DNA from: an uncultured Solirubrobacterales bacterium | Lineage (GTDB): Bacteria > Actinomycetota > Thermoleophilia > Solirubrobacterales > Solirubrobacteraceae | Direction of reading: 5' to 3' | DNA: 64,000 nt | NCBI GenBank assembly: GCA_963749285.1 | Contig: CAVVMD010000002.1 | Location: 1,025,275-1,089,274 of the forward strand | In this document: one piece after another, positions 3 to 8,523 of the stretch | Layout of the letters: each line of letters starts with the position of its first letter | Position numbering within the stretch: the first letter of the stretch is position 1 | Translations under genes and position numbers: made by a program | The notes under the pieces: model-generated | The model's input: only the letters and a program-made list of their open reading frames with translations | Database searches by the model: none | What the model was told of the DNA's origin: nothing

Positions 3-1589
3 TACGTGGGCGAAGCGGGGGAGTACCTGGCGCGCGAGCTCACGCAGCTGGGGATTGAGGCGCAGATCGCCGGCCGGGCCAAGCACTTCTACTCGATCTA
101 CTCGAAGATGACGAAGAAGGGGCGCGAGTTCAACGAGATCTACGACCTCACCGCGATGCGCGTGATCGTCGACTCGGTCAAGGACTGCTACGGGACCGTC
201 GGCGCGATCCACTCGCTGTGGAAGCCGCTGCCCGGCCGCTTCAAGGACTTCATCGCGATGCCCAAGTTCAACATGTACCAGTCGCTGCACACGACCGTGA
301 TCGGGCCGGAGGGCCGCCCGCTCGAGATCCAGATCCGCACGCAGGAGATGCACGAGATGGCGGAGTTCGGGGTCGCGGCTCACTGGATGTACAAGCACCT
401 GCCCGGCTCCGAGCGCAGTGGGCGGGATAGCCACAGGACGGGTTCGCCCGAGGACGCAAAGCTGCAGTGGCTGCGCTCGATGCTCGACTGGCAGAAGGAG
501 CTCTCAGACCCGCAGGAGTTCATGGACACGCTGCGCACGGACCTGTTCGAGGACGAGGTGTATGTGTTCACACCGAAGGGCGAAGTCAAGTCGCTGGCGG
601 CGGGCGCGACGCCGCTGGACTTCGCCTATGAGGTTCACACCGAGATCGGCCACCGCTGCGTGGGCGCGCGTGTGAACGGCAAGATCGTGCCGCTGCACTG
701 CGAGCTGCGCAGCGGAGACATCGTGGAGATTCTCACCGCCAAGCGCGAGCGCGGACCCTCGCGCGACTGGCTGGCGATGGTCAAGACCACGCGCGCCCGC
801 AACAAGATCAAGGCGTGGTTCAAGGCGGAGTCCCGCCAGGACACCGAGCACACCGGGCGCGACCTGCTGCAGGAGCACCTGCGCAAGCAGGGCCTGCCGG
901 CGCAGAAGATCACCGGCTCGGCGCTGCTGGCGGACGTGATCCGCGAGGTCGGCTATCGCAAGGCGGACGATTTCTACATCGCCCTGGGCGCGGCGAAGGT
1001 CTCGCCGAAGGTGGTCGTCAACAAGGTGATGCAGCGCCTGAAGCAGGGCGAGGCCGCCGACGGCGACGCCACCGGAGCCGAGCTCTTGCGGGTTGGGCGC
1101 CCGCGCCGACGCCCCACGAAGTCCTCCGGGCAATATGGGATCAAGGTGGAGGGCGTCGAGGATGTGATGCTGCGCTTGGCGAAGTGCTGCCGGCCCGTGC
1201 CGGGCGATGAGATAGTCGGCTACATCTCGCTCGGGCGTGGCATCACGATCCACCGCGAGGACTGCCCCAACGCGGTGATCCTCGCGCGCGACCCGGAGCG
1301 CTTTGTGAGCGTCTCCTGGGAGGGAGAGCGCAGCACGGCGTTCATAGTCGAGATTCAGATCGACGCGTGGGATCGCCACCGCCTGCTCGAGGATCTCTCG
1401 CGAGTGTTCTCGGAGTCGGGCGCGAACATCCTGGAAGCGCGCTGCCTGTCAAGCCCGCCGATGGTCAAGAATCGGTTCGTGGTCGAGGTCGCGGACACGC
1501 ACACCTTGAAGGGTGCGATCACGCGACTGAGAAACATCGAGTCGGTCTTCGACGCCTACCGGGTCACTCCGGGCGGCGCCGTAGCGTAG
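3..1589 (+). CDS. rel: (p)ppGpp synthetase/hydrolase Rel (RelA/SpoT family), 5' part outside window
   Basis: Synthetase motifs GRAKHFYSIYSKM, PKFNMYQSLHT and EIQIRT; TGS domain (FAYEVHTEIGH); CC-containing ZFD (LAKCC..PGDEIVGY); C-terminal ACT; TAG at 1587-1589. Confidence 0.97.
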   Translation, partial: YVGEAGEYLARELTQLGIEAQIAGRAKHFYSIYSKMTKKGREFNEIYDLTAMRVIVDSVKDCYGTVGAIHSLWKPLPGRFKDFIAMPKFNMYQSLHTTVIGPEGRPLEIQIRTQEMHEMAEFGVAAHWMYKHLPGSERSGRDSHRTGSPEDAKLQWLRSMLDWQKELSDPQEFMDTLRTDLFEDEVYVFTPKGEVKSLAAGATPLDFAYEVHTEIGHRCVGARVNGKIVPLHCELRSGDIVEILTAKRERGPSRDWLAMVKTTRARNKIKAWFKAESRQDTEHTGRDLLQEHLRKQGLPAQKITGSALLADVIREVGYRKADDFYIALGAAKVSPKVVVNKVMQRLKQGEAADGDATGAELLRVGRPRRRPTKSSGQYGIKVEGVEDVMLRLAKCCRPVPGDEIVGYISLGRGITIHREDCPNAVILARDPERFVSVSWEGERSTAFIVEIQIDAWDRHRLLEDLSRVFSESGANILEARCLSSPPMVKNRFVVEVADTHTLKGAITRLRNIESVFDAYRVTPGGAVA

Positions 1590-1771: not shown

Positions 1772-2776
1772 TTATGCGAGCACGTTGAGCGCGCCCGGCA
1801 GGATCGAGTAGCGCGCTTGCGAGGTCTCGCCGAGATAGTCGCCGTCGACCTGCAGCGGCAGCGGGCGCTCGTCGGTGGAGCTCACGGTCAGCTCGGTGAA
1901 CCCCGGCAGGCCCGTGACCTGGCGGTGGCGGCTGACCCGCGCGCCGCGCGCGAATGCGCGCAGGCCGATCGTGGGCATCGACAGGGGTGTGGCGCGACGG
2001 AGCACGCAGCCACACAGCTCGCCTGAGTCGAGCGTGGTGCCGTCGGCGATCTCGATCGGGCGGTTCTGGAAGTAGGTGAACGGCGAGCCGTTCTGGACGA
2101 TCGCGGTGACGCCTGTGTGACTGTCCTCACCCGCGAGCACCACCTCCATGCGCGGGGGATTGACGAGGTAGCGGCGGGCGAACGTGCGCAGGGCCACCCA
2201 GGTGAAGTAGTACGCGCCCAGACGCGCCTTCAGGCGCGGGTTGGCGTCGACCCGCTCGACGACGCTCGCGTCAACGCCGAGGCCGGATGCGAACGTGAAG
2301 CAGCGGCGATCGGCGAGGATGTCCTGCGCGCCATCGGCGCTGACGACGCCGAGGTCCACGCGGCGGGGGCGCCAGTCATCGGCGAGCGCGAGCAGGTGCT
2401 CGGTGGCGTCGACGAGCTCACCGGGGATGCCGAGCATCTTGGCGAACACGTTCGCCGAGCCGCCGGGGAGGCAGGTCAGCGGCGTGGGGGAGCCGAGCAG
2501 CCCATTGGCGGCTTCGTTGACGGTGCCGTCGCCGCCGAAGGCGACCACCACGTCATAGCCCTCGTGCGCCGCCTCGCGGCACAGCTCGGTCGCATGGCCG
2601 CGAGCCTCGGTATCGACCGCATCGACCTCGAACCGGCCCTGCAGCGCATACACGACGAGATGGCGCAGACGGTCGGAGACAGTGGTTGCGTACGGGTTGA
2701 CGATGATCAGCATGCGCCGCTTGACCGCGGGGGCCTCGGGCTCGAAGTCGTCGGCCACGTCGGCCGGCTCAGTCAT
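1772..2776 (-). CDS. Diacylglycerol kinase-family lipid kinase (DAGKc)
   Basis: IIVNP, AFGGDGTVNE, LPGGSANVFA and QVDGD motifs; start placed at ATG 2776. Confidence 0.9.
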   Translation of the reverse strand: MTEPADVADDFEPEAPAVKRRMLIIVNPYATTVSDRLRHLVVYALQGRFEVDAVDTEARGHATELCREAAHEGYDVVVAFGGDGTVNEAANGLLGSPTPLTCLPGGSANVFAKMLGIPGELVDATEHLLALADDWRPRRVDLGVVSADGAQDILADRRCFTFASGLGVDASVVERVDANPRLKARLGAYYFTWVALRTFARRYLVNPPRMEVVLAGEDSHTGVTAIVQNGSPFTYFQNRPIEIADGTTLDSGELCGCVLRRATPLSMPTIGLRAFARGARVSRHRQVTGLPGFTELTVSSTDERPLPLQVDGDYLGETSQARYSILPGALNVLA

Positions 2777-2889
2777 GTGCGCGGCGTGCGTGCTGAGAGA
2801 GGGGGAGGCGCTCATCTGAAGCGCCCTACACCGAGCCCGCCCGGGCGTTACCGTTGACCCGCCAGGCGCGGTCCTCGCACGGTGTGCGC

Positions 2890-2917
2890 TTGCATCCGTC
2901 CGCATGCTTGCTAAACT
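2890..2917 (+). promoter_or_regulatory. Putative sigma-A promoter upstream of the SAM riboswitch
   Basis: TTGCAT (2890-2895), 16 nt spacer, TG-extended TAAACT (2912-2917). Confidence 0.6.
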
Positions 2918-2935
2918 GCCCCGCTACATAGCAGG

Positions 2936-3024
2936 ACACATCAAGAGGGGTGGAGGGACTGGCCCGATGAAGCCCCGGCAACCACCGTCTAGCGGCGGGA
3001 AGGTGCCAATTCCAGAAGATGTGT
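2936..3024 (+). ncRNA. SAM-I (S-box) riboswitch aptamer, P4 apparently absent
   Basis: P1 ACACATC/GATGTGT; canonical core ATCAAGAG-GGGTGGAGGGACTGGCCCGATGAAGCCCC-GGCAACC...GGTGCCAATTCC; only AGAA between AATTCC and the P1 3' strand. Confidence 0.92.
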
Positions 3025-3090
3025 GGCGGGCTTCGTGCCTTTCGCCACACCGTTTGCAACTGGCGAAGGTCTTCAAAAGGAGCCCCTATC

Positions 3091-4356
3091 ATGGCTGTGA
3101 GGAATCTGCAGTGCAAGGAGTGCAAGTCCGAGTATCCGCTGGAGGCGCTGTACGTGTGCGAGCGCTGCTTCGGGCCACTGGAGGTCACCTACGACCACAG
3201 CCGCCTGGCCGGTGGCGACATCGACGAGTTGCGCCGGCGGATCCAGGCGGGACCGCAGAACATCTGGCGTTACGCCGACTTCCTGCCGCTCCCGGGCGGC
3301 CCACCCGGCCCGTCGGGCAGGCTGGCCTCACGCGTGGGCCTGCCGGCCGGGTGCACGCCGCTGATTCGCGCCGACAGGCTGGCGGCGCGGTTGGGGTTGC
3401 GCGAGGTGTGGGTCAAGAACGACGCGGCCAACCCGACCCACTCGTTCAAGGATCGCGTCGTGTCGGTGGCCGCGGCGCGCGCACGGGAGCTGGGCTTTCA
3501 GACGATCGCGTGCGCCTCGACGGGCAACCTCGCCAACTCGGTGGCGGCGCACGGGGCGGCGCTGGGGCTCGAGTCCTACGTGTTCATCCCGGCCGATCTG
3601 GAGGAGCAGAAGGTGCTCGCGACGGGTGTGTACGGGACGAAGCTGATCGCGGTGCAGGGCAACTACGACGACGTCAACCGCCTCTGCACTGAGCTGTGCG
3701 CCGAGCGCGACTGGGCATTCGTGAACGTGAACCTGCGCCCGTACTACGCGGAGGGCTCAAAGACGCTGGCGTTTGAGATCGCCGAGCAGCTCGGCTTCGA
3801 GCTGCCCGACCGCATCGTCGCGCCGATCGCTTCGGGGTCGCTGTTCACGAAGATCGGGCGTGGCTTTGAGGAGTGGCGCGATGTCGGCCTGCTGGACGGC
3901 GAGCTGCCGAAGATGAACGGCGCCCAGGCCGAGGGCTGCTCGCCCGTGGCGAGCGCATTCGCCTCCGGCCACGACGTGTGCAGGCCGGTCAAGCCGGACA
4001 CGATCGCCAAGTCGCTGGCGATCGGCAACCCCGCCGACGGCCCGTACGCGCTGGAGCTCGCCCGCACGAGTGGTGGCACGGTTGATTCCGTCAGCGACGA
4101 GGAGATCCGGCAGGGCATCGCCCTGCTCGCACAGACGACGGGTGTGTTCACCGAGACCGCCGGCGGCGTGACGACAGCGGTGCTTGCAAAGCTGGCCGCG
4201 CGCGGGGACATCGACCCCGATGAGCGCGTCGTGCTCGCGATCACCGGCGATGGTCTGAAGACGCTCGACGCCGTGCGGGACACGTTCGAGACGCACACGA
4301 TCGACCCGACCGTCGAGTCATTCGAGACGCGAGTGCCCGAGGCCGTCGCGGTCTGA
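3091..4356 (+). CDS. thrC: Threonine synthase-like PLP enzyme (fold type II) with N-terminal CxxC...CxxC
   Basis: NPTHSFKDR (PLP lysine), CASTGN, EGSKT, GSGS-like ASGSL; RBS AAGGAG at 3077-3082. Confidence 0.88.
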   Translation: MAVRNLQCKECKSEYPLEALYVCERCFGPLEVTYDHSRLAGGDIDELRRRIQAGPQNIWRYADFLPLPGGPPGPSGRLASRVGLPAGCTPLIRADRLAARLGLREVWVKNDAANPTHSFKDRVVSVAAARARELGFQTIACASTGNLANSVAAHGAALGLESYVFIPADLEEQKVLATGVYGTKLIAVQGNYDDVNRLCTELCAERDWAFVNVNLRPYYAEGSKTLAFEIAEQLGFELPDRIVAPIASGSLFTKIGRGFEEWRDVGLLDGELPKMNGAQAEGCSPVASAFASGHDVCRPVKPDTIAKSLAIGNPADGPYALELARTSGGTVDSVSDEEIRQGIALLAQTTGVFTETAGGVTTAVLAKLAARGDIDPDERVVLAITGDGLKTLDAVRDTFETHTIDPTVESFETRVPEAVAV

Positions 4357-4369
4357 TGGCGGTGACGCA

Positions 4370-4648
4370 ATGGCGGTGACGGTCAAGATTCCGACGCAGC
4401 TGCGATCCGCGGCCGGGGGCGAGGCTGAGGCCGAGGTGGATGGCGCGACCGTCCAGGATGTGCTGGATGGCCTGTATGCGCGTCACGGCGAGCTGCGCGA
4501 GCGGCTCAGCGACGAGGACGGATCGTTGCGACGCTTCGTGAACGTGTACGTGTCCGGCGAAGACATCCGCTTCTTGGACGGCTTGCAGACACCAGTTGCG
4601 GACGGCGCCGAGTTGACAATTCTGCCCGCTGTGGCGGGCGGTCGCTAG
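4370..4648 (+). CDS. MoaD/ThiS/CysO-family ubiquitin-like sulfur carrier
   Basis: VKIPTQLR, FVNVYVSGEDIRF; C-terminus PAVAGG-R. Confidence 0.92.
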   Translation: MAVTVKIPTQLRSAAGGEAEAEVDGATVQDVLDGLYARHGELRERLSDEDGSLRRFVNVYVSGEDIRFLDGLQTPVADGAELTILPAVAGGR

Positions 4649-4878
4649 CGATGAGTTGACGCAGCGTGAGTGGCGATCCCAGCGGGGTGGCTTGTGTGCG
4701 CCGTCGCCGGGGTGGAGCCGCTGAAGCCGATCGTCGAGAAGATCCCCGCTGCGGACATCACCGCGATCGTGAGCGCACGCATGCGGCGCGGGGTGAGCCA
4801 GCCGAAGTGGTGGGTCTGAAGCCACGTCCGAACTCCGGTCGCGGCCGAGGCCGCACACATCACACAACCAGCGCACAT
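4645..4878 (-). CDS. Small hypothetical membrane peptide with N-terminal MCxxCxMC
   Basis: ATG 4878; MCAGCVMC followed by WLTPRR and a hydrophobic helix; lies downstream of the ctaG-like gene on the same strand. Confidence 0.55.
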   Translation of the reverse strand: MCAGCVMCAASAATGVRTWLQTHHFGWLTPRRMRALTIAVMSAAGIFSTIGFSGSTPATAHTSHPAGIATHAASTHR

Positions 4879-4991
4879 GCGATGAGGATACCGCCCAGTC
4901 GCCCGGATGGGCGCGGTTCGGACCGGTCGCGCCGCAGGCCGGCAGCGGCGGAAGAACCAGACACGGACGACCGTCCGGCTCTCGGCGCGCG

Positions 4992-5900
4992 CTAGCCCTC
5001 GGGGGCGCCCGCGCGGGTCTCCAGGCGCCGGCGCAGCTCCGCCCCGCGTCCGGCCGCGACGGCGCGCGCGGCGCGCGCGTCGGTCAGCTCGAGGCCCTGG
5101 GCTTGGGCGAAGTCGAGCAGGTCTTGGCGCTCCTCGCTCTCGCGGGCGGTGCGCAGGAACAGCCAGCAGAACAGGCCGAGCGTGAGGATCGACTCCTCGA
5201 CCATCATGATGGCCCCGGCGATGTTCTGATCGGCGATTGGGGAGATGTGGTAAACGGCGTCGCCGTGGATGTAGTACGGGTAGAACACGGTCCCAGACCA
5301 CAGAAAGATGTTGCCGAGGATCGTGCCGGCGAGACGCACGGCGATGATGTAGATGAGCTTGCCGAGGTTGCCGAACCAGCTCGGCATCGGCAACGGGCCG
5401 AACAGGCACATCCACATGTTGATGCCGAACCCGAGGAACATCGCGTGCTCGAGCGCATGCACGCCTGAGTGACGCAGCGCCGCCTGGTAGAAGACGGGCA
5501 AGTGCCATGTGTACAGGTCGATCGCCCACAGCGGAAAGGCGATCAGCGGATTGGCGAGGACGCGCAGGCGGTCGAAGAAGCGAATGCGCAATATCGGCGC
5601 GATCAGCGGCCCGGTCAGGCCGAGCACGATCAACAGCGCCGCGATGTCGCCGAGCAGCAGGTGCTCGATCATGTGCACGAACAGCAGGTCCTGGCTGGCG
5701 CTGCCCAACGAGGTGAGCGCGACCGCGATCACGACGAAACCCGAGTAGAAGCACGCTTGGCGCCAGCCGGGCACAGGCGTGCGGCCCTCGTAGGCCAGGG
5801 TGCGCACGCGCCGGGCATAGAGCAGCCCCAGGATCGCCAGCGGCCCGAGCTGCAAGGCGGCCTGGATGTCCGTCGAGACGGCGAGGGGAAGCACGGTCAT
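4992..5900 (-). CDS. Cytochrome c oxidase assembly factor, Caa3_CtaG-like membrane protein
   Basis: Multi-TM protein with HMIEHLLLGD, WHLP and HALEH motifs. Confidence 0.85.
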   Translation of the reverse strand: MTVLPLAVSTDIQAALQLGPLAILGLLYARRVRTLAYEGRTPVPGWRQACFYSGFVVIAVALTSLGSASQDLLFVHMIEHLLLGDIAALLIVLGLTGPLIAPILRIRFFDRLRVLANPLIAFPLWAIDLYTWHLPVFYQAALRHSGVHALEHAMFLGFGINMWMCLFGPLPMPSWFGNLGKLIYIIAVRLAGTILGNIFLWSGTVFYPYYIHGDAVYHISPIADQNIAGAIMMVEESILTLGLFCWLFLRTARESEERQDLLDFAQAQGLELTDARAARAVAAGRGAELRRRLETRAGAPEG

Positions 5901-6022
5901 CTCGCTCTGGAGGGTACGGGTTTGGGGTCGATCGTTGCGCGGGAGTCGGAGGCTCGGACCGCGGATCTCGGCACGGTTTGCCCTGCGCTTGGATTGAGAT
6001 CGACCCGTAGACTGCGGCTGGC

Positions 6023-7567
6023 ATGAGAACCAGATGCGCCCGCAAGCTGCCGTTTCTGCTCGGTGGCTTGATCCTCGCGGCGCTGGCGATCCCGGCGAGC
6101 GCGCAGGCGCATGGGATCGTGGGACGAGCGAACCTGCCGATCCCCGTGTGGCTGTTCAGCTGGACGGCGGCGATCGTGCTGGTGGTGTCGTTCGTCGCGC
6201 TCTCGACCCTGTGGACGACGCCACAGCTGCAGGAGCAGCATCGGCGGGCGCTGGTGCGACTTCCCGCGGTGCTGGAATGGCTGGCCTGCCTGATCGGAGT
6301 GGGGCTGTTCGCGCTGGTCGTGTACAGCGGATTCGCCGGAGCCCAGGTGACGCAGGCGAACTTCTCGGTGACGTTCATCTACGTCATCTTCTGGGTCGGC
6401 ACGCCGCTGGCGAGCGTGCTGTTCGGGGACATCTTCCGCGCATTCAGCCCATGGCGGACGTGCGCGCGCGTGCTGACCACGCTCGTGCGTGTGGCCCGTG
6501 GTGGGAGCAAGCGCAGCGCGGGGGAGGGCGACAGGAGTGAGCGCAGCGCAGGGGAGCGTAACGGGGGCGAGCGCGGCGCAGGGAAGCACAGCGGAGAGGT
6601 GAGCAGAGGGGGAGAGGACAGCGGGCCCCCGCTGCGTTATCCCGAGTGGCTGGGGATGTGGCCGGCGGTGGCGACGATCGTCGGGTTCGCGTGGTTGGAG
6701 CTCATATACGTACCCGCCGACCGCGACCATCCGGCGACGCTGGCGGTGCTGTCGCTGGCGTACTTCCTGATCACGCTCGCCGGGATGATGCTGTTCGGGG
6801 TCGAGCAGTGGGGCGGGCGGGCCGACGGGTTCGGGGCGTACTTCAACCTGCTCTCGAGGCTGTCGGGCATCGTTCGTGACGAGGACGGAATCATCTGCCT
6901 GCGCCGCCCGCTGAGTGGGATCACCGATCTCGAGATCCGCCCGGGTACGGTCGCGCTGATCTGCGCGATCATCGGCACGACGACGTTCGACGGGTTCAGC
7001 AACGGCGGCGTCTGGCGCAATCTCGAGCCTAGCCTGCAGAGTCTGTTCGCCGATCTCGGCTTCAGCCAGACACCGGCGCTGGAGCTCGCCTACTCGGTCG
7101 GGATGCTGTTCTGCCTGGGGCTGATCGCGGGCGTGTTCCGGCTCGGCATCGTCGGGGTGCGCAGCGTCAGCACGCGCTACGACACCCGGCAGCTGACGCA
7201 CGCCTTCGCGCACACGCTCGTGCCGATCGGGTTCGCATATGTGCTCGCGCACTACTTCTCGCTGCTGATCTGGCAGGGCCAGGCGATCGGCTATCTCGCC
7301 TCGGACCCGCTCGGCAACGGGGCCAACCTGTTCGGGACCAGCAGCTCCCAGATCGACTACAACATCATCTCCTTCGCGGCGATCTGGTACGTGCAGGTCG
7401 CCGCCCTACTGACCGGCCACGTGGGCGGGCTGGCGCTGGCACACGACCGCGCACTGGCCATGTACGACAACGTCGAAGAGGCGGTCCGCTCGCAGTACTG
7501 GATGCTCGCGGTGATGGTCGCGTTCACGAGCTTCGGGCTGTGGCTGCTCTCGGCGGTGGGGACGTGA
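6023..7567 (+). CDS. Multi-pass membrane protein resembling the actinobacterial family loosely annotated 'fenitrothion hydrolase'
   Basis: Signal peptide ending ASAQA-HG; ~10 TM segments; conserved-looking AHYFS and GH...AHDRA; function unverified. Confidence 0.75.
   Translation: MRTRCARKLPFLLGGLILAALAIPASAQAHGIVGRANLPIPVWLFSWTAAIVLVVSFVALSTLWTTPQLQEQHRRALVRLPAVLEWLACLIGVGLFALVVYSGFAGAQVTQANFSVTFIYVIFWVGTPLASVLFGDIFRAFSPWRTCARVLTTLVRVARGGSKRSAGEGDRSERSAGERNGGERGAGKHSGEVSRGGEDSGPPLRYPEWLGMWPAVATIVGFAWLELIYVPADRDHPATLAVLSLAYFLITLAGMMLFGVEQWGGRADGFGAYFNLLSRLSGIVRDEDGIICLRRPLSGITDLEIRPGTVALICAIIGTTTFDGFSNGGVWRNLEPSLQSLFADLGFSQTPALELAYSVGMLFCLGLIAGVFRLGIVGVRSVSTRYDTRQLTHAFAHTLVPIGFAYVLAHYFSLLIWQGQAIGYLASDPLGNGANLFGTSSSQIDYNIISFAAIWYVQVAALLTGHVGGLALAHDRALAMYDNVEEAVRSQYWMLAVMVAFTSFGLWLLSAVGT
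6509..6598 (+). repeat. In-frame 15-nt purine-rich tandem repeat (~6 units)
   Basis: AAGCGCAGCGCGGGG / GAGGGCGACAGGAGT / GAGCGCAGCGCAGGG / GAGCGTAACGGGGGC / GAGCGCGGCGCAGGG / AAGCACAGCGGAGAG. Confidence 0.75.
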
Positions 7568-7595
7568 GCGTCCGTAGTTGGCTACGGTGATATTC

Positions 7596-8357
7596 ATGTC
7601 CCGCCGCCTGCTGCCGATCCTGCTCAGCGCAGTGGTGCTCACGCTGCCGGTCGCAGCTCATGCCGCGATCACGAGCGAGAACGGGAACCCGATCAACGAC
7701 CAGGGCAGCAACTTCAACTACCGCTCGAACATCACGGGCGTCACGCCGAACGTTCCCGGGCTCAGCCTGGAAGTCCTCGAGTTCGCCGATCGGCTGCTGT
7801 TGACTAACCACACGGGCAAGACGGTCACGATCTACGGCTACCAGGGAGAACCCTACGCGCGCGTGCTGGCGAATGGGACGGCCGAGCAGAACACGCGCTC
7901 GCCGGCGTACTACCTCAACCAGAGCTTCTACGGCGATGTCAACGTTCCCGCCTCGGCGAGTCCGAGCGCGCCGCCACACTGGATTGTGGTAGATCGCACC
8001 GGTCAGTTCGAATGGCACGACCACCGCATCCACTGGATGTCGCCGGTAACGCCCCCCCAGGTCAAGGACAAGAGCAAGCGCACGTTGGTCTTCAACTGGC
8101 AGGTGCCGATCCAGGTCGGCGCCCAGCAGGGCGCAGTCGCCGGGCAGCTGTTCTGGACGCCGGATAACTCGAAAGCACCGACGGCGGCGATTGTGCTCGG
8201 GGTGGCGATCGCCCTGCTCGGCCTGCTGTTTGTGTGGTTCGTGCGCAGGCGCCGCGCGCGGCGCGCGGCAGACCGGGACGGCGGGGCCAGCGCAGGCGGC
8301 GGGGGTGCAGCCGGGGGCGCCGGTGGGTCGAAGATGCCGGCGAAGGAAGCGTGGTGA
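7596..8357 (+). CDS. Secreted protein with C-terminal TM anchor and WHDHRIHWM motif
   Basis: Signal peptide (..AAHA); beta-rich body; TM IVLGVAIALLGLLFVWFV followed by RRRR. Confidence 0.8.
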   Translation: MSRRLLPILLSAVVLTLPVAAHAAITSENGNPINDQGSNFNYRSNITGVTPNVPGLSLEVLEFADRLLLTNHTGKTVTIYGYQGEPYARVLANGTAEQNTRSPAYYLNQSFYGDVNVPASASPSAPPHWIVVDRTGQFEWHDHRIHWMSPVTPPQVKDKSKRTLVFNWQVPIQVGAQQGAVAGQLFWTPDNSKAPTAAIVLGVAIALLGLLFVWFVRRRRARRAADRDGGASAGGGGAAGGAGGSKMPAKEAW

Positions 8358-8361
8358 GCGC

Positions 8362-8523
8362 GTGATAACTTTTCTGGAGATGGCCCCGCTTGCCTGCCTG
8401 ATGCACTGGTACATCTCGATGCTGTACGTCGTGCCGGTCGTAGCCGTCGGCGGCTGGTGCTGGTGGAGCTCAAAGCGCATGGCCCGCCGCTCCGGGCCGC
8501 CGAAATCTACGCCCGCCGCGTAG
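8362..8523 (+). CDS. Small single-TM hypothetical protein
   Basis: GTG 4 nt after the upstream stop; CLMHW then a hydrophobic helix and basic tail. Confidence 0.55.
   Translation: MITFLEMAPLACLMHWYISMLYVVPVVAVGGWCWWSSKRMARRSGPPKSTPAA

Follow-up and report, generated by a model that had tools for sequence, protein, structure and literature searches.

Within the window, by which we mean the whole 64,000-nucleotide stretch of Solirubrobacterales DNA that was analysed, a cmscan search found a single SAM-I aptamer, full-length and above the RF00162 gathering score of 44.4 bits. It stands in the leader of a predicted sulfur/methionine gene, its 3′ end lying 65 nt upstream of the start codon of a gene for a PLP enzyme of the ThrC fold, and this is followed, 13 nt beyond its stop codon, by a gene for a sulfur carrier of the CysO/MoaD type. 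We refer to the two genes as metM and metO. The ORF downstream of metO is convergent, so the operon consists of two genes, with no third. A first-pass annotation, made from the letters of the DNA, had already described the aptamer, the thrC-like gene that comes after it and a MoaD/CysO-like gene ending in AGG-R, and all three hold up against the models listed in the table. The start that it gave, position 2936, falls one base inside the aptamer. The scan did not call a by-eye match to a promoter at positions 2890-2917 (TTGCAT, 16 nt, TAAACT), and no promoter is claimed here.

Table. Features of the metM-metO locus, in positions of the window; the two RNA structures are proposals.
Feature	Start	End	Strand	Details
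SAM-I (S-box) riboswitch aptamer	2935	3025	+	RF00162, 79.1 bits, E 5.9e-17, model positions 1-108 of 108
Proposed anti-sequestor helix, SAM-free state	3021	3050	+	GUGUGGCG (3021-3028, 3′ strand of P1 plus GCG) with CGCCACAC (3043-3050)
Proposed SAM-bound 'off' structure	3028	3085	+	GGGCUUC (3028-3034) with GGAGCCC (3079-3085); inner hairpin 3037-3047/3061-3070
metM-like gene, ThrC-fold PLP enzyme, 421 aa	3091	4356	+	PALP 249.8 bits, TIGR00260 280 bits
metO-like gene, CysO/MoaD-type sulfur carrier, 92 aa	4370	4648	+	ThiS-family 59 bits, SAMP1/MoaD-type 74 bits

The longest reading frame of metM opens at position 3019. Its true start is most likely the ATG at 3091, since this codon has a Shine-Dalgarno sequence, AAAGGAG, 8 nt upstream and homologs of 421 amino acids cover 100% of the reading that begins there. 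The product carries an N-terminal four-cysteine zinc-ribbon motif of the form CxxC...CxxC (C8, C11, C23, and C26; nt 3112-3168), and its PLP lysine, K120 (nt 3448-3450), sits in an SFKDR motif. The four cysteines, together with S118, K120, D121, and R122, are invariant in an 11-member alignment made up of the metM product and ten relatives of 40-55% identity. The best match among solved structures (E 4e-57) has the threonine synthase fold, and the named homologs among the matches listed are all called threonine synthase. In terms of profile scores, the protein lies above the cut-off of TIGR00260, the thrC model (280 versus 167 bits), but below those of the full-length equivalog models PRK08197, which is the closest of its kind (267 versus 303 bits), and PRK05638 (201 versus 421 bits). 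Cysteine synthase models do not occur among the best 25 NCBIfam matches listed. Moreover, neither hom nor thrB neighbors metM, and the place beside them is taken by another gene of this genome. From its sequence and its setting, we predict that the metM product is a homocysteine synthase that depends on the thiocarboxylate of MetO.

The carrier ends in ...LPAVAGGR (GGC GGT CGC TAG at 4637-4648), a single residue, R92 (CGC at 4643-4645), standing beyond G90 and G91. Its best solved relatives are 4n6e_B, a ThiS/MoaD family protein (E 9e-25), and then 3dwg_C (E 5e-21), which we take to be CysO of Mycobacterium tuberculosis. Of 74 related carriers with a readable end, 67 stop at GG, four end in GGR, and one each in GGE, GGC, and GGAR; carriers from the wider Actinomycetota end at GG in 11 of 16 cases, and the others in GGC, GGA, GGSA, GGFC, and GGSTDDGV. 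The arginine cap is a minority state, missing in the six closest relatives, and its presence implies, by analogy, trimming by a JAMM protein.

Two alternative structures are proposed for the RNA between the aptamer and metM. In the minimum-free-energy fold of positions 2935-3110 (-62.2 kcal/mol), the anti-sequestor pairing is formed and the Shine-Dalgarno sequence is unpaired, and the anti-sequestor sequence is kept in close relatives. The 'off' structure, whose GGAGCCC partner covers the Shine-Dalgarno sequence, is obtained when positions 3026-3093 are folded without the P1 strand (-22.8 kcal/mol), and it also forms when P1 is enforced. The SAM-on and SAM-off folds differ very little in energy, at -61.6 versus -62.2 kcal/mol. 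Both helices are common to all of 10 relatives, whose consensus fold has compensatory changes in 5 of 13 pairs, and the backing that covariation gives to the anti-Shine-Dalgarno helix is modest. A pattern scan found no terminator-like site in positions 2700-4900, a result to be read in the knowledge that actinobacterial terminators without a U-tract might escape it, and the transcription-attenuation model was dropped for this locus on that account. In some of the more distant relatives, a U-run comes instead after a GC-rich hairpin whose 3′ arm holds the Shine-Dalgarno sequence, and in relative L026 the hairpin and U-run are called terminator-like by the pattern scan. On balance, the folding models favor translational control in this locus, exerted through sequestration of the ribosome-binding site. 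At high SAM concentrations, P1 would be locked, leaving GGGCUUC, just 3′ of P1, to pair with GGAGCCC at the ribosome-binding site and so turn translation of metM off; at low SAM, the 3′ strand of P1 would instead pair with CGCCACAC, and the ribosome-binding site would be open.

The genome to which the locus belongs, that of a member of the Solirubrobacteraceae to judge by the names borne by near-identical proteins, is 3.4 Mb in size and 93% complete, and a search of the whole assembly located just one SAM-I element, that at metM. The first-pass annotation had pointed to a second thrC, and to genes of the JAMM and MoeB/MoeZ types, as the partners to be expected if the operon served carrier-dependent homocysteine synthesis, and the genome contains them. 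A canonical hom-thrC-thrB operon elsewhere encodes a ThrC of 360 aa that is without the zinc ribbon and is 37-39% identical to the metM product, meaning that metM is not the only thrC in the genome, as it would have to be for the refutation set out in the first-pass annotation. The thrB of this operon (TIGR00191, 205.8 bits versus a cut-off of 168) encodes a homoserine kinase for the supply of O-phosphohomoserine. The sole E1 of the ThiF family (L009:4561-5742) has an N-terminal rhodanese domain and scores as PRK08762-type (566.8 bits); against the MoeZ model it reaches 360 bits versus a cut-off of 647, and its domain order is unlike that of the MoeZ model. Directly after the E1 gene lies that of a second carrier, 51% identical to the metO product and ending in AGGGV, and some 3 kb beyond this are CysM and the only JAMM protein of the genome. 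The JAMM protein (Prok-JAB, 72 bits), whose gene adjoins cysM, has an intact HxHx7SxxD motif, HSHTRTAPRPSQTD, and by analogy is a candidate for the hydrolase that matures the metO-encoded carrier.

As for the rest of the methionine pathway, B12-dependent MetH is present. In the 93%-complete genome, searches found no MetX (best score 21.9 bits versus a cut-off of 500), no MetA/HTS, MetE, DUF39/HcyBio, or NIL protein, and no genuine enzyme of the MetB/C/Y/Z family (PF01053), the marginal PF01053 matches proving to be two ordinary aminotransferases, one of class I/II and one of the DegT family. At this level of completeness, the missing MetX and MetY are not proof of absence from the genome. Because MetX, MetA, MetB/C/Y/Z, and DUF39 were not found, MetM/MetO looks like the only route to homocysteine in this genome, and one gated by its only SAM-I riboswitch.

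The distribution of metM was followed through 301 genomes of Actinomycetota and 41 of Solirubrobacterales, tallies that include the unpublished genomes G226, G018, G148, G001, G239, G048, G120, G174, G268, G082, and G325, none of which supplied sequence or bears a claim of its own. A match to the metM product at E <= 1e-60 is present in 143 of the 301 sampled Actinomycetota genomes. Full-length matches in this set are 50-79% identical to the query, and next come the third ThrC-like paralog of the genome itself, at 45%, and then proteins at 35-40%, an identity gap that separates orthologs (at least 50%) from paralogs (at most 45%). Orthologs of the third paralog were also sought across the order, and only MetM orthologs were matched, at 40-46% identity. 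Within Solirubrobacterales, 40 of the 41 genomes contain a MetM ortholog and only about 14 a genuine PF01053 enzyme. All eight genomes of genus g42, which are 7-10 Mb in size, have a metM match; we identify this genus as Streptomyces, since the protein of one of its loci shares 88-93% identity with many proteins that carry the names of Streptomyces species, and its loci have the order SAM-I, enzyme, carrier in eight of eight cases. Identity to the Streptomyces orthologs is 52-57% for the enzyme and 48-52% for the carrier, the figure for the Streptomyces peucetius enzyme being 55% over 411 aa.

Gene order was compared in the 80 closest loci from species-representative genomes, a sample that contains no Streptomyces. 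In 77 of these the enzyme gene is immediately followed, in the same orientation, by the carrier gene, and in 68, including all of the actinobacterial loci, a SAM-I element stands directly upstream; the 12 without one are from 11 cyanobacteria and one further bacterium. The cyanobacterial loci agree in this respect with the description of a cyanobacterial homolog lacking the riboswitch (PMC12172450). A quick maximum-likelihood search places the metM product with proteins from Conexibacter, Patulibacter, and Miltoncostaeaceae, in a group nested within a larger clade that takes in Streptomyces, Micromonosporaceae, Acidimicrobiia, and the carrier-linked genes of cyanobacteria. The canonical ThrC of the genome lies across the root of this tree, and a long branch carries the third paralog, which falls immediately outside the large clade. 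The phylogeny suggested in the first-pass annotation thus puts the metM product among the riboswitch-linked orthologs of Streptomyces and away from canonical ThrC.

The pathway to which these orthologs most likely belong has been described. As reported in citing papers (PMC13759103; bioRxiv 10.1101/2024.10.14.618325, Appendix 4; PMC12172450), Hasebe, Adachi, Maruyama, and Hamano (2024, Appl Environ Microbiol 90:e0124724) established a MetM/MetO/MoeZ/Mec pathway in Streptomyces albulus, in which MetO-thiocarboxylate and O-phosphohomoserine yield homocysteine in a process that needs MetO, MoeZ, and Mec; bioRxiv 10.64898/2026.09.15.751699 is further literature on the route. The S. albulus metM gene has a SAM riboswitch upstream (PMC12172450), and MetM is commonly misannotated as ThrC (GapMind 2026). 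By way of the other Streptomyces orthologs and these secondary descriptions, the metM product is likely an ortholog of S. albulus MetM (A0A059WBP2), and conservation of function at 55% identity is likely, if not guaranteed. The proposal of the first-pass annotation, condensation of a carrier thiocarboxylate with O-phosphohomoserine to give homocysteine, is supported and matches the S. albulus system, but it is not new, the route having been published for Streptomyces in 2024. The alternative substrate that it allowed, O-phosphoserine, is not favored, since a CysM with a carrier to itself is encoded separately in the genome.

With a probability of about 0.87, resting on orthology with S. albulus, we read metM and metO as an operon of two genes that is controlled by a SAM-I riboswitch and serves the MetM/MetO route to homocysteine. 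For the catalysis and the carrier trimming, as for the switch, we infer by analogy how the steps would run. O-Phosphohomoserine would be made by ThrB, encoded elsewhere. The single JAMM/Mec protease would first cut the C-terminal arginine off MetO, baring Gly-Gly, and the single rhodanese-ThiF E1, which is MoeZ-like, would next adenylate and thiocarboxylate the carrier. MetM would then eliminate phosphate from O-phosphohomoserine and add the thiocarboxylate sulfur of MetO at the γ-carbon, and the homocysteine so formed would be converted to methionine by B12-dependent MetH.

Other readings of the pair deserve consideration. One concerns the sulfur donor: in vivo, MetM might use free sulfide or some other small molecule, the carrier being dispensable or serving another acceptor. 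The thiocarboxylate chemistry is known here through secondary descriptions, and the supply of Na2S to a homolog gave an unidentified product (PMC12172450), both of which leave some room for this idea. It is nonetheless very improbable in view of a carrier linkage that is near-universal across Actinomycetota and cyanobacteria, of the mere 13 nt that part the metM stop from the metO start, and of the requirement of the published pathway, as its citing papers give it, for MetO, MoeZ, and Mec. Slightly harder still to credit is the production of cysteine from O-phosphoserine in the manner of M. tuberculosis CysM/CysO, to which the CysO-type structures nearest the carrier (4n6e_B, 3dwg_C) might point, given that the enzyme has the ThrC and not the CysK/CysM fold, that CysM models match only other genes of the genome, that a cysteine role is already covered by the separate CysM with its adjacent JAMM protein and by the second carrier beside the E1, and that control by SAM speaks for methionine rather than cysteine.

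The least probable reading of all, in our estimation, is that metM encodes a genuine second threonine synthase, repressed by SAM through chance and accompanied by a functionally unrelated carrier gene. The name given to its listed homologs and its passing of the TIGR00260 cut-off would accord with this, as would the threonine synthase/deaminase activity of the cyanobacterial homolog in vitro (PMC12172450; that homolog did not raise methionine in vivo). Against these stand a canonical ThrC already in place in hom-thrC-thrB, a score under the PRK08197 cut-off, the conserved association with the carrier and, in all actinobacterial members of the closest loci, with SAM-I, and the fact that the Streptomyces ortholog group includes, according to the literature as cited, an enzyme shown to make homocysteine. 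Without MetM/MetO, the genome would, in addition, appear to have no homocysteine route.

The principal consequence is one of annotation: the listed homologs that go by the name threonine synthase are most likely homocysteine-forming enzymes. A MetM ortholog is carried by about half of the sampled Actinomycetota genomes, and a metabolic reconstruction missing MetM/MetO would place these bacteria, which are abundant in soil, among the methionine auxotrophs. Nothing here alters the known mechanism. We consider it an even chance that here, and in about two-thirds of the sampled Solirubrobacterales, MetM/MetO is the sole and obligate route to homocysteine and not a back-up as in Streptomyces, that the whole methionine supply would consequently depend on a single SAM-I riboswitch, a single E1, and a single JAMM protease, and that the variable carrier caps (R here; E, C, AR, A, SA, FC, and STDDGV elsewhere) would make proteolytic uncapping a second point of control. 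The pathway appears to be essential here, rather than redundant, and Solirubrobacterales would therefore be a good place in which to test its physiological role.

Comparison with S. albulus MetM/MetO reveals the closest likeness, extending to the order of SAM-I, ThrC-fold enzyme, and CysO-like carrier, to the presence of a rhodanese-ThiF E1 and a JAMM/Mec protein in the genome, and to a predicted C-terminal maturation of the carrier, which S. albulus MetO (A0A059W7F4) is said in citing papers to require (Hasebe et al. 2024). The differences are of host, here a member of the Solirubrobacteraceae in another class, Thermoleophilia; of E1, which here has its rhodanese domain at the N terminus and is of the PRK08762 type rather than MoeZ; of carrier cap, here arginine; and of expression platform, here with no terminator found. 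In addition, no acyl-homoserine route was found in this genome, so the pathway appears obligate and not redundant.

The CysM/CysO/Mec/MoeZ system of M. tuberculosis has the thiocarboxylate of a ubiquitin-like carrier attack a PLP-bound intermediate derived from an O-phospho-amino acid, converting O-phosphoserine to cysteine, and it is not known to have a SAM riboswitch. The logic of the carrier thiocarboxylate and the E1 and JAMM partners are held in common with the present locus, but the enzyme there belongs to the CysM subfamily, with O-phosphoserine as substrate and cysteine as product, whereas here it is ThrC-like, with O-phosphohomoserine and homocysteine as the predicted counterparts. 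By its best 25 NCBIfam matches, the metM product is not a condensing enzyme of the CysM type (CysK family), the true CysM being encoded elsewhere in the genome. In Wolinella succinogenes, HcyS/HcyF/HcyD act with MetY, the carrier thiocarboxylate giving the sulfur of homocysteine and a JAMM protein removing the residue after GG. The carrier thiocarboxylate for homocysteine, the residue beyond GG, and the JAMM protease are points of resemblance; the condensing enzyme is not, being in Wolinella an O-acetylhomoserine sulfhydrylase of the PF01053 family that acts on O-acetylhomoserine, with no genuine member of that family found in this genome. Canonical ThrC (for example, PDB 2zsj, 6cgq, 1uim, and 2d1f), finally, shares with the metM product the fold-type II PLP fold, the lysine motif SFKDR, and, as predicted, the substrate O-phosphohomoserine. 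What sets the metM product apart from it are the additional N-terminal zinc ribbon of four cysteines and the company that its gene keeps, a sulfur carrier and control by SAM in place of hom and thrB.

In some more distant Solirubrobacterales, the orthologous SAM-I riboswitches upstream of metM carry a GC-rich hairpin and, 3' of it, a U-run (CCUCCGCC...GGCGGAGG UUUUUU); the Shine-Dalgarno sequence lies within the 3' arm of the hairpin, a few bases 5' of the ATG. A pattern scan for terminators called the hairpin of L026 alone terminator-like and made no such call for that of L039; at the metM loci L024, L028, L031 and L044, hairpin and U-run were read by eye. In the subclade to which the window belongs, the U-run has been lost, and a separate, proposed anti-Shine-Dalgarno helix is present. 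The expression platform has therefore turned over while the aptamer remained orthologous.

The immediate surroundings of the operon are listed with the other features in the table. Several long, overlapping candidate frames between 4645 and 8480 of the window have no Pfam or NCBIfam match.

Features of the source genome and of related metM loci (L, locus; coordinates without prefix are those of the window)
Feature	Coordinates	Strand	Remarks
RelA/SpoT (p)ppGpp synthetase, C-terminal part	3-1589	+	RelA_SpoT, TGS and ACT domains; enters from window edge
YegS/DAG-kinase-like lipid kinase	1772-2905	-	divergent from riboswitch
Candidate frame	4645-6378	-	convergent with metO, overlapping its stop codon
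Candidate frame	5897-7252	-	
Candidate frame	6023-7567	+	
Candidate frame	7524-8480	-	
Third ThrC-like gene	L003:1393-2781 = G000:C2:680571-681836	-	same genome as window
Rhodanese-ThiF E1	L009:4561-5742		rhodanese domain N-terminal; best model PRK08762, not MoeZ
Second CysO-like carrier	L009:5946-6224		C terminus AGGGV
CysM	L009:9246-10328		~3 kb beyond second carrier
JAMM protein	L009:10344-10937		sole one in genome; directly after CysM
GC-rich hairpin and U-run	L026:2969-2995		immediately 5' of start codon; also L024, L028, L031, L039, L044

The third ThrC-like protein of the genome shares the four-Cys zinc ribbon of the MetM-like protein, to which it is 44-45% identical, and has the lysine motif SYKDR. 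Its gene has no adjoining carrier gene; it is flanked by a cellulose-synthase/PilZ-like gene on one side and by a fragment of a class I tRNA synthetase on the other. No ortholog was found in 40 sampled Solirubrobacterales genomes, because the top matches there (40-46% identical) are merely MetM orthologs. In the tree, it forms a long branch immediately outside the MetM clade. Among the named matches to the Streptomyces MetM ortholog, P0406, 88% identical to it, comes from a record named Stenotrophomonas sp. NPDC087984, in which mislabelling or contamination of the assembly is likely.

A sulfur-relay neighbourhood (L009, G000:C3:1634000-1650000) is located on a contig other than that of the window, and both carriers of the source genome have residues beyond the GG. 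Across the Actinomycetota, the carriers encoded downstream of metM orthologs (L101, L105, L107, L109 and L111) follow no obvious pattern in this respect, and their C-terminal caps are diverse, ranging over GGC (in a Streptomyces), GGSA, GGA, GGFC and GGSTDDGV.
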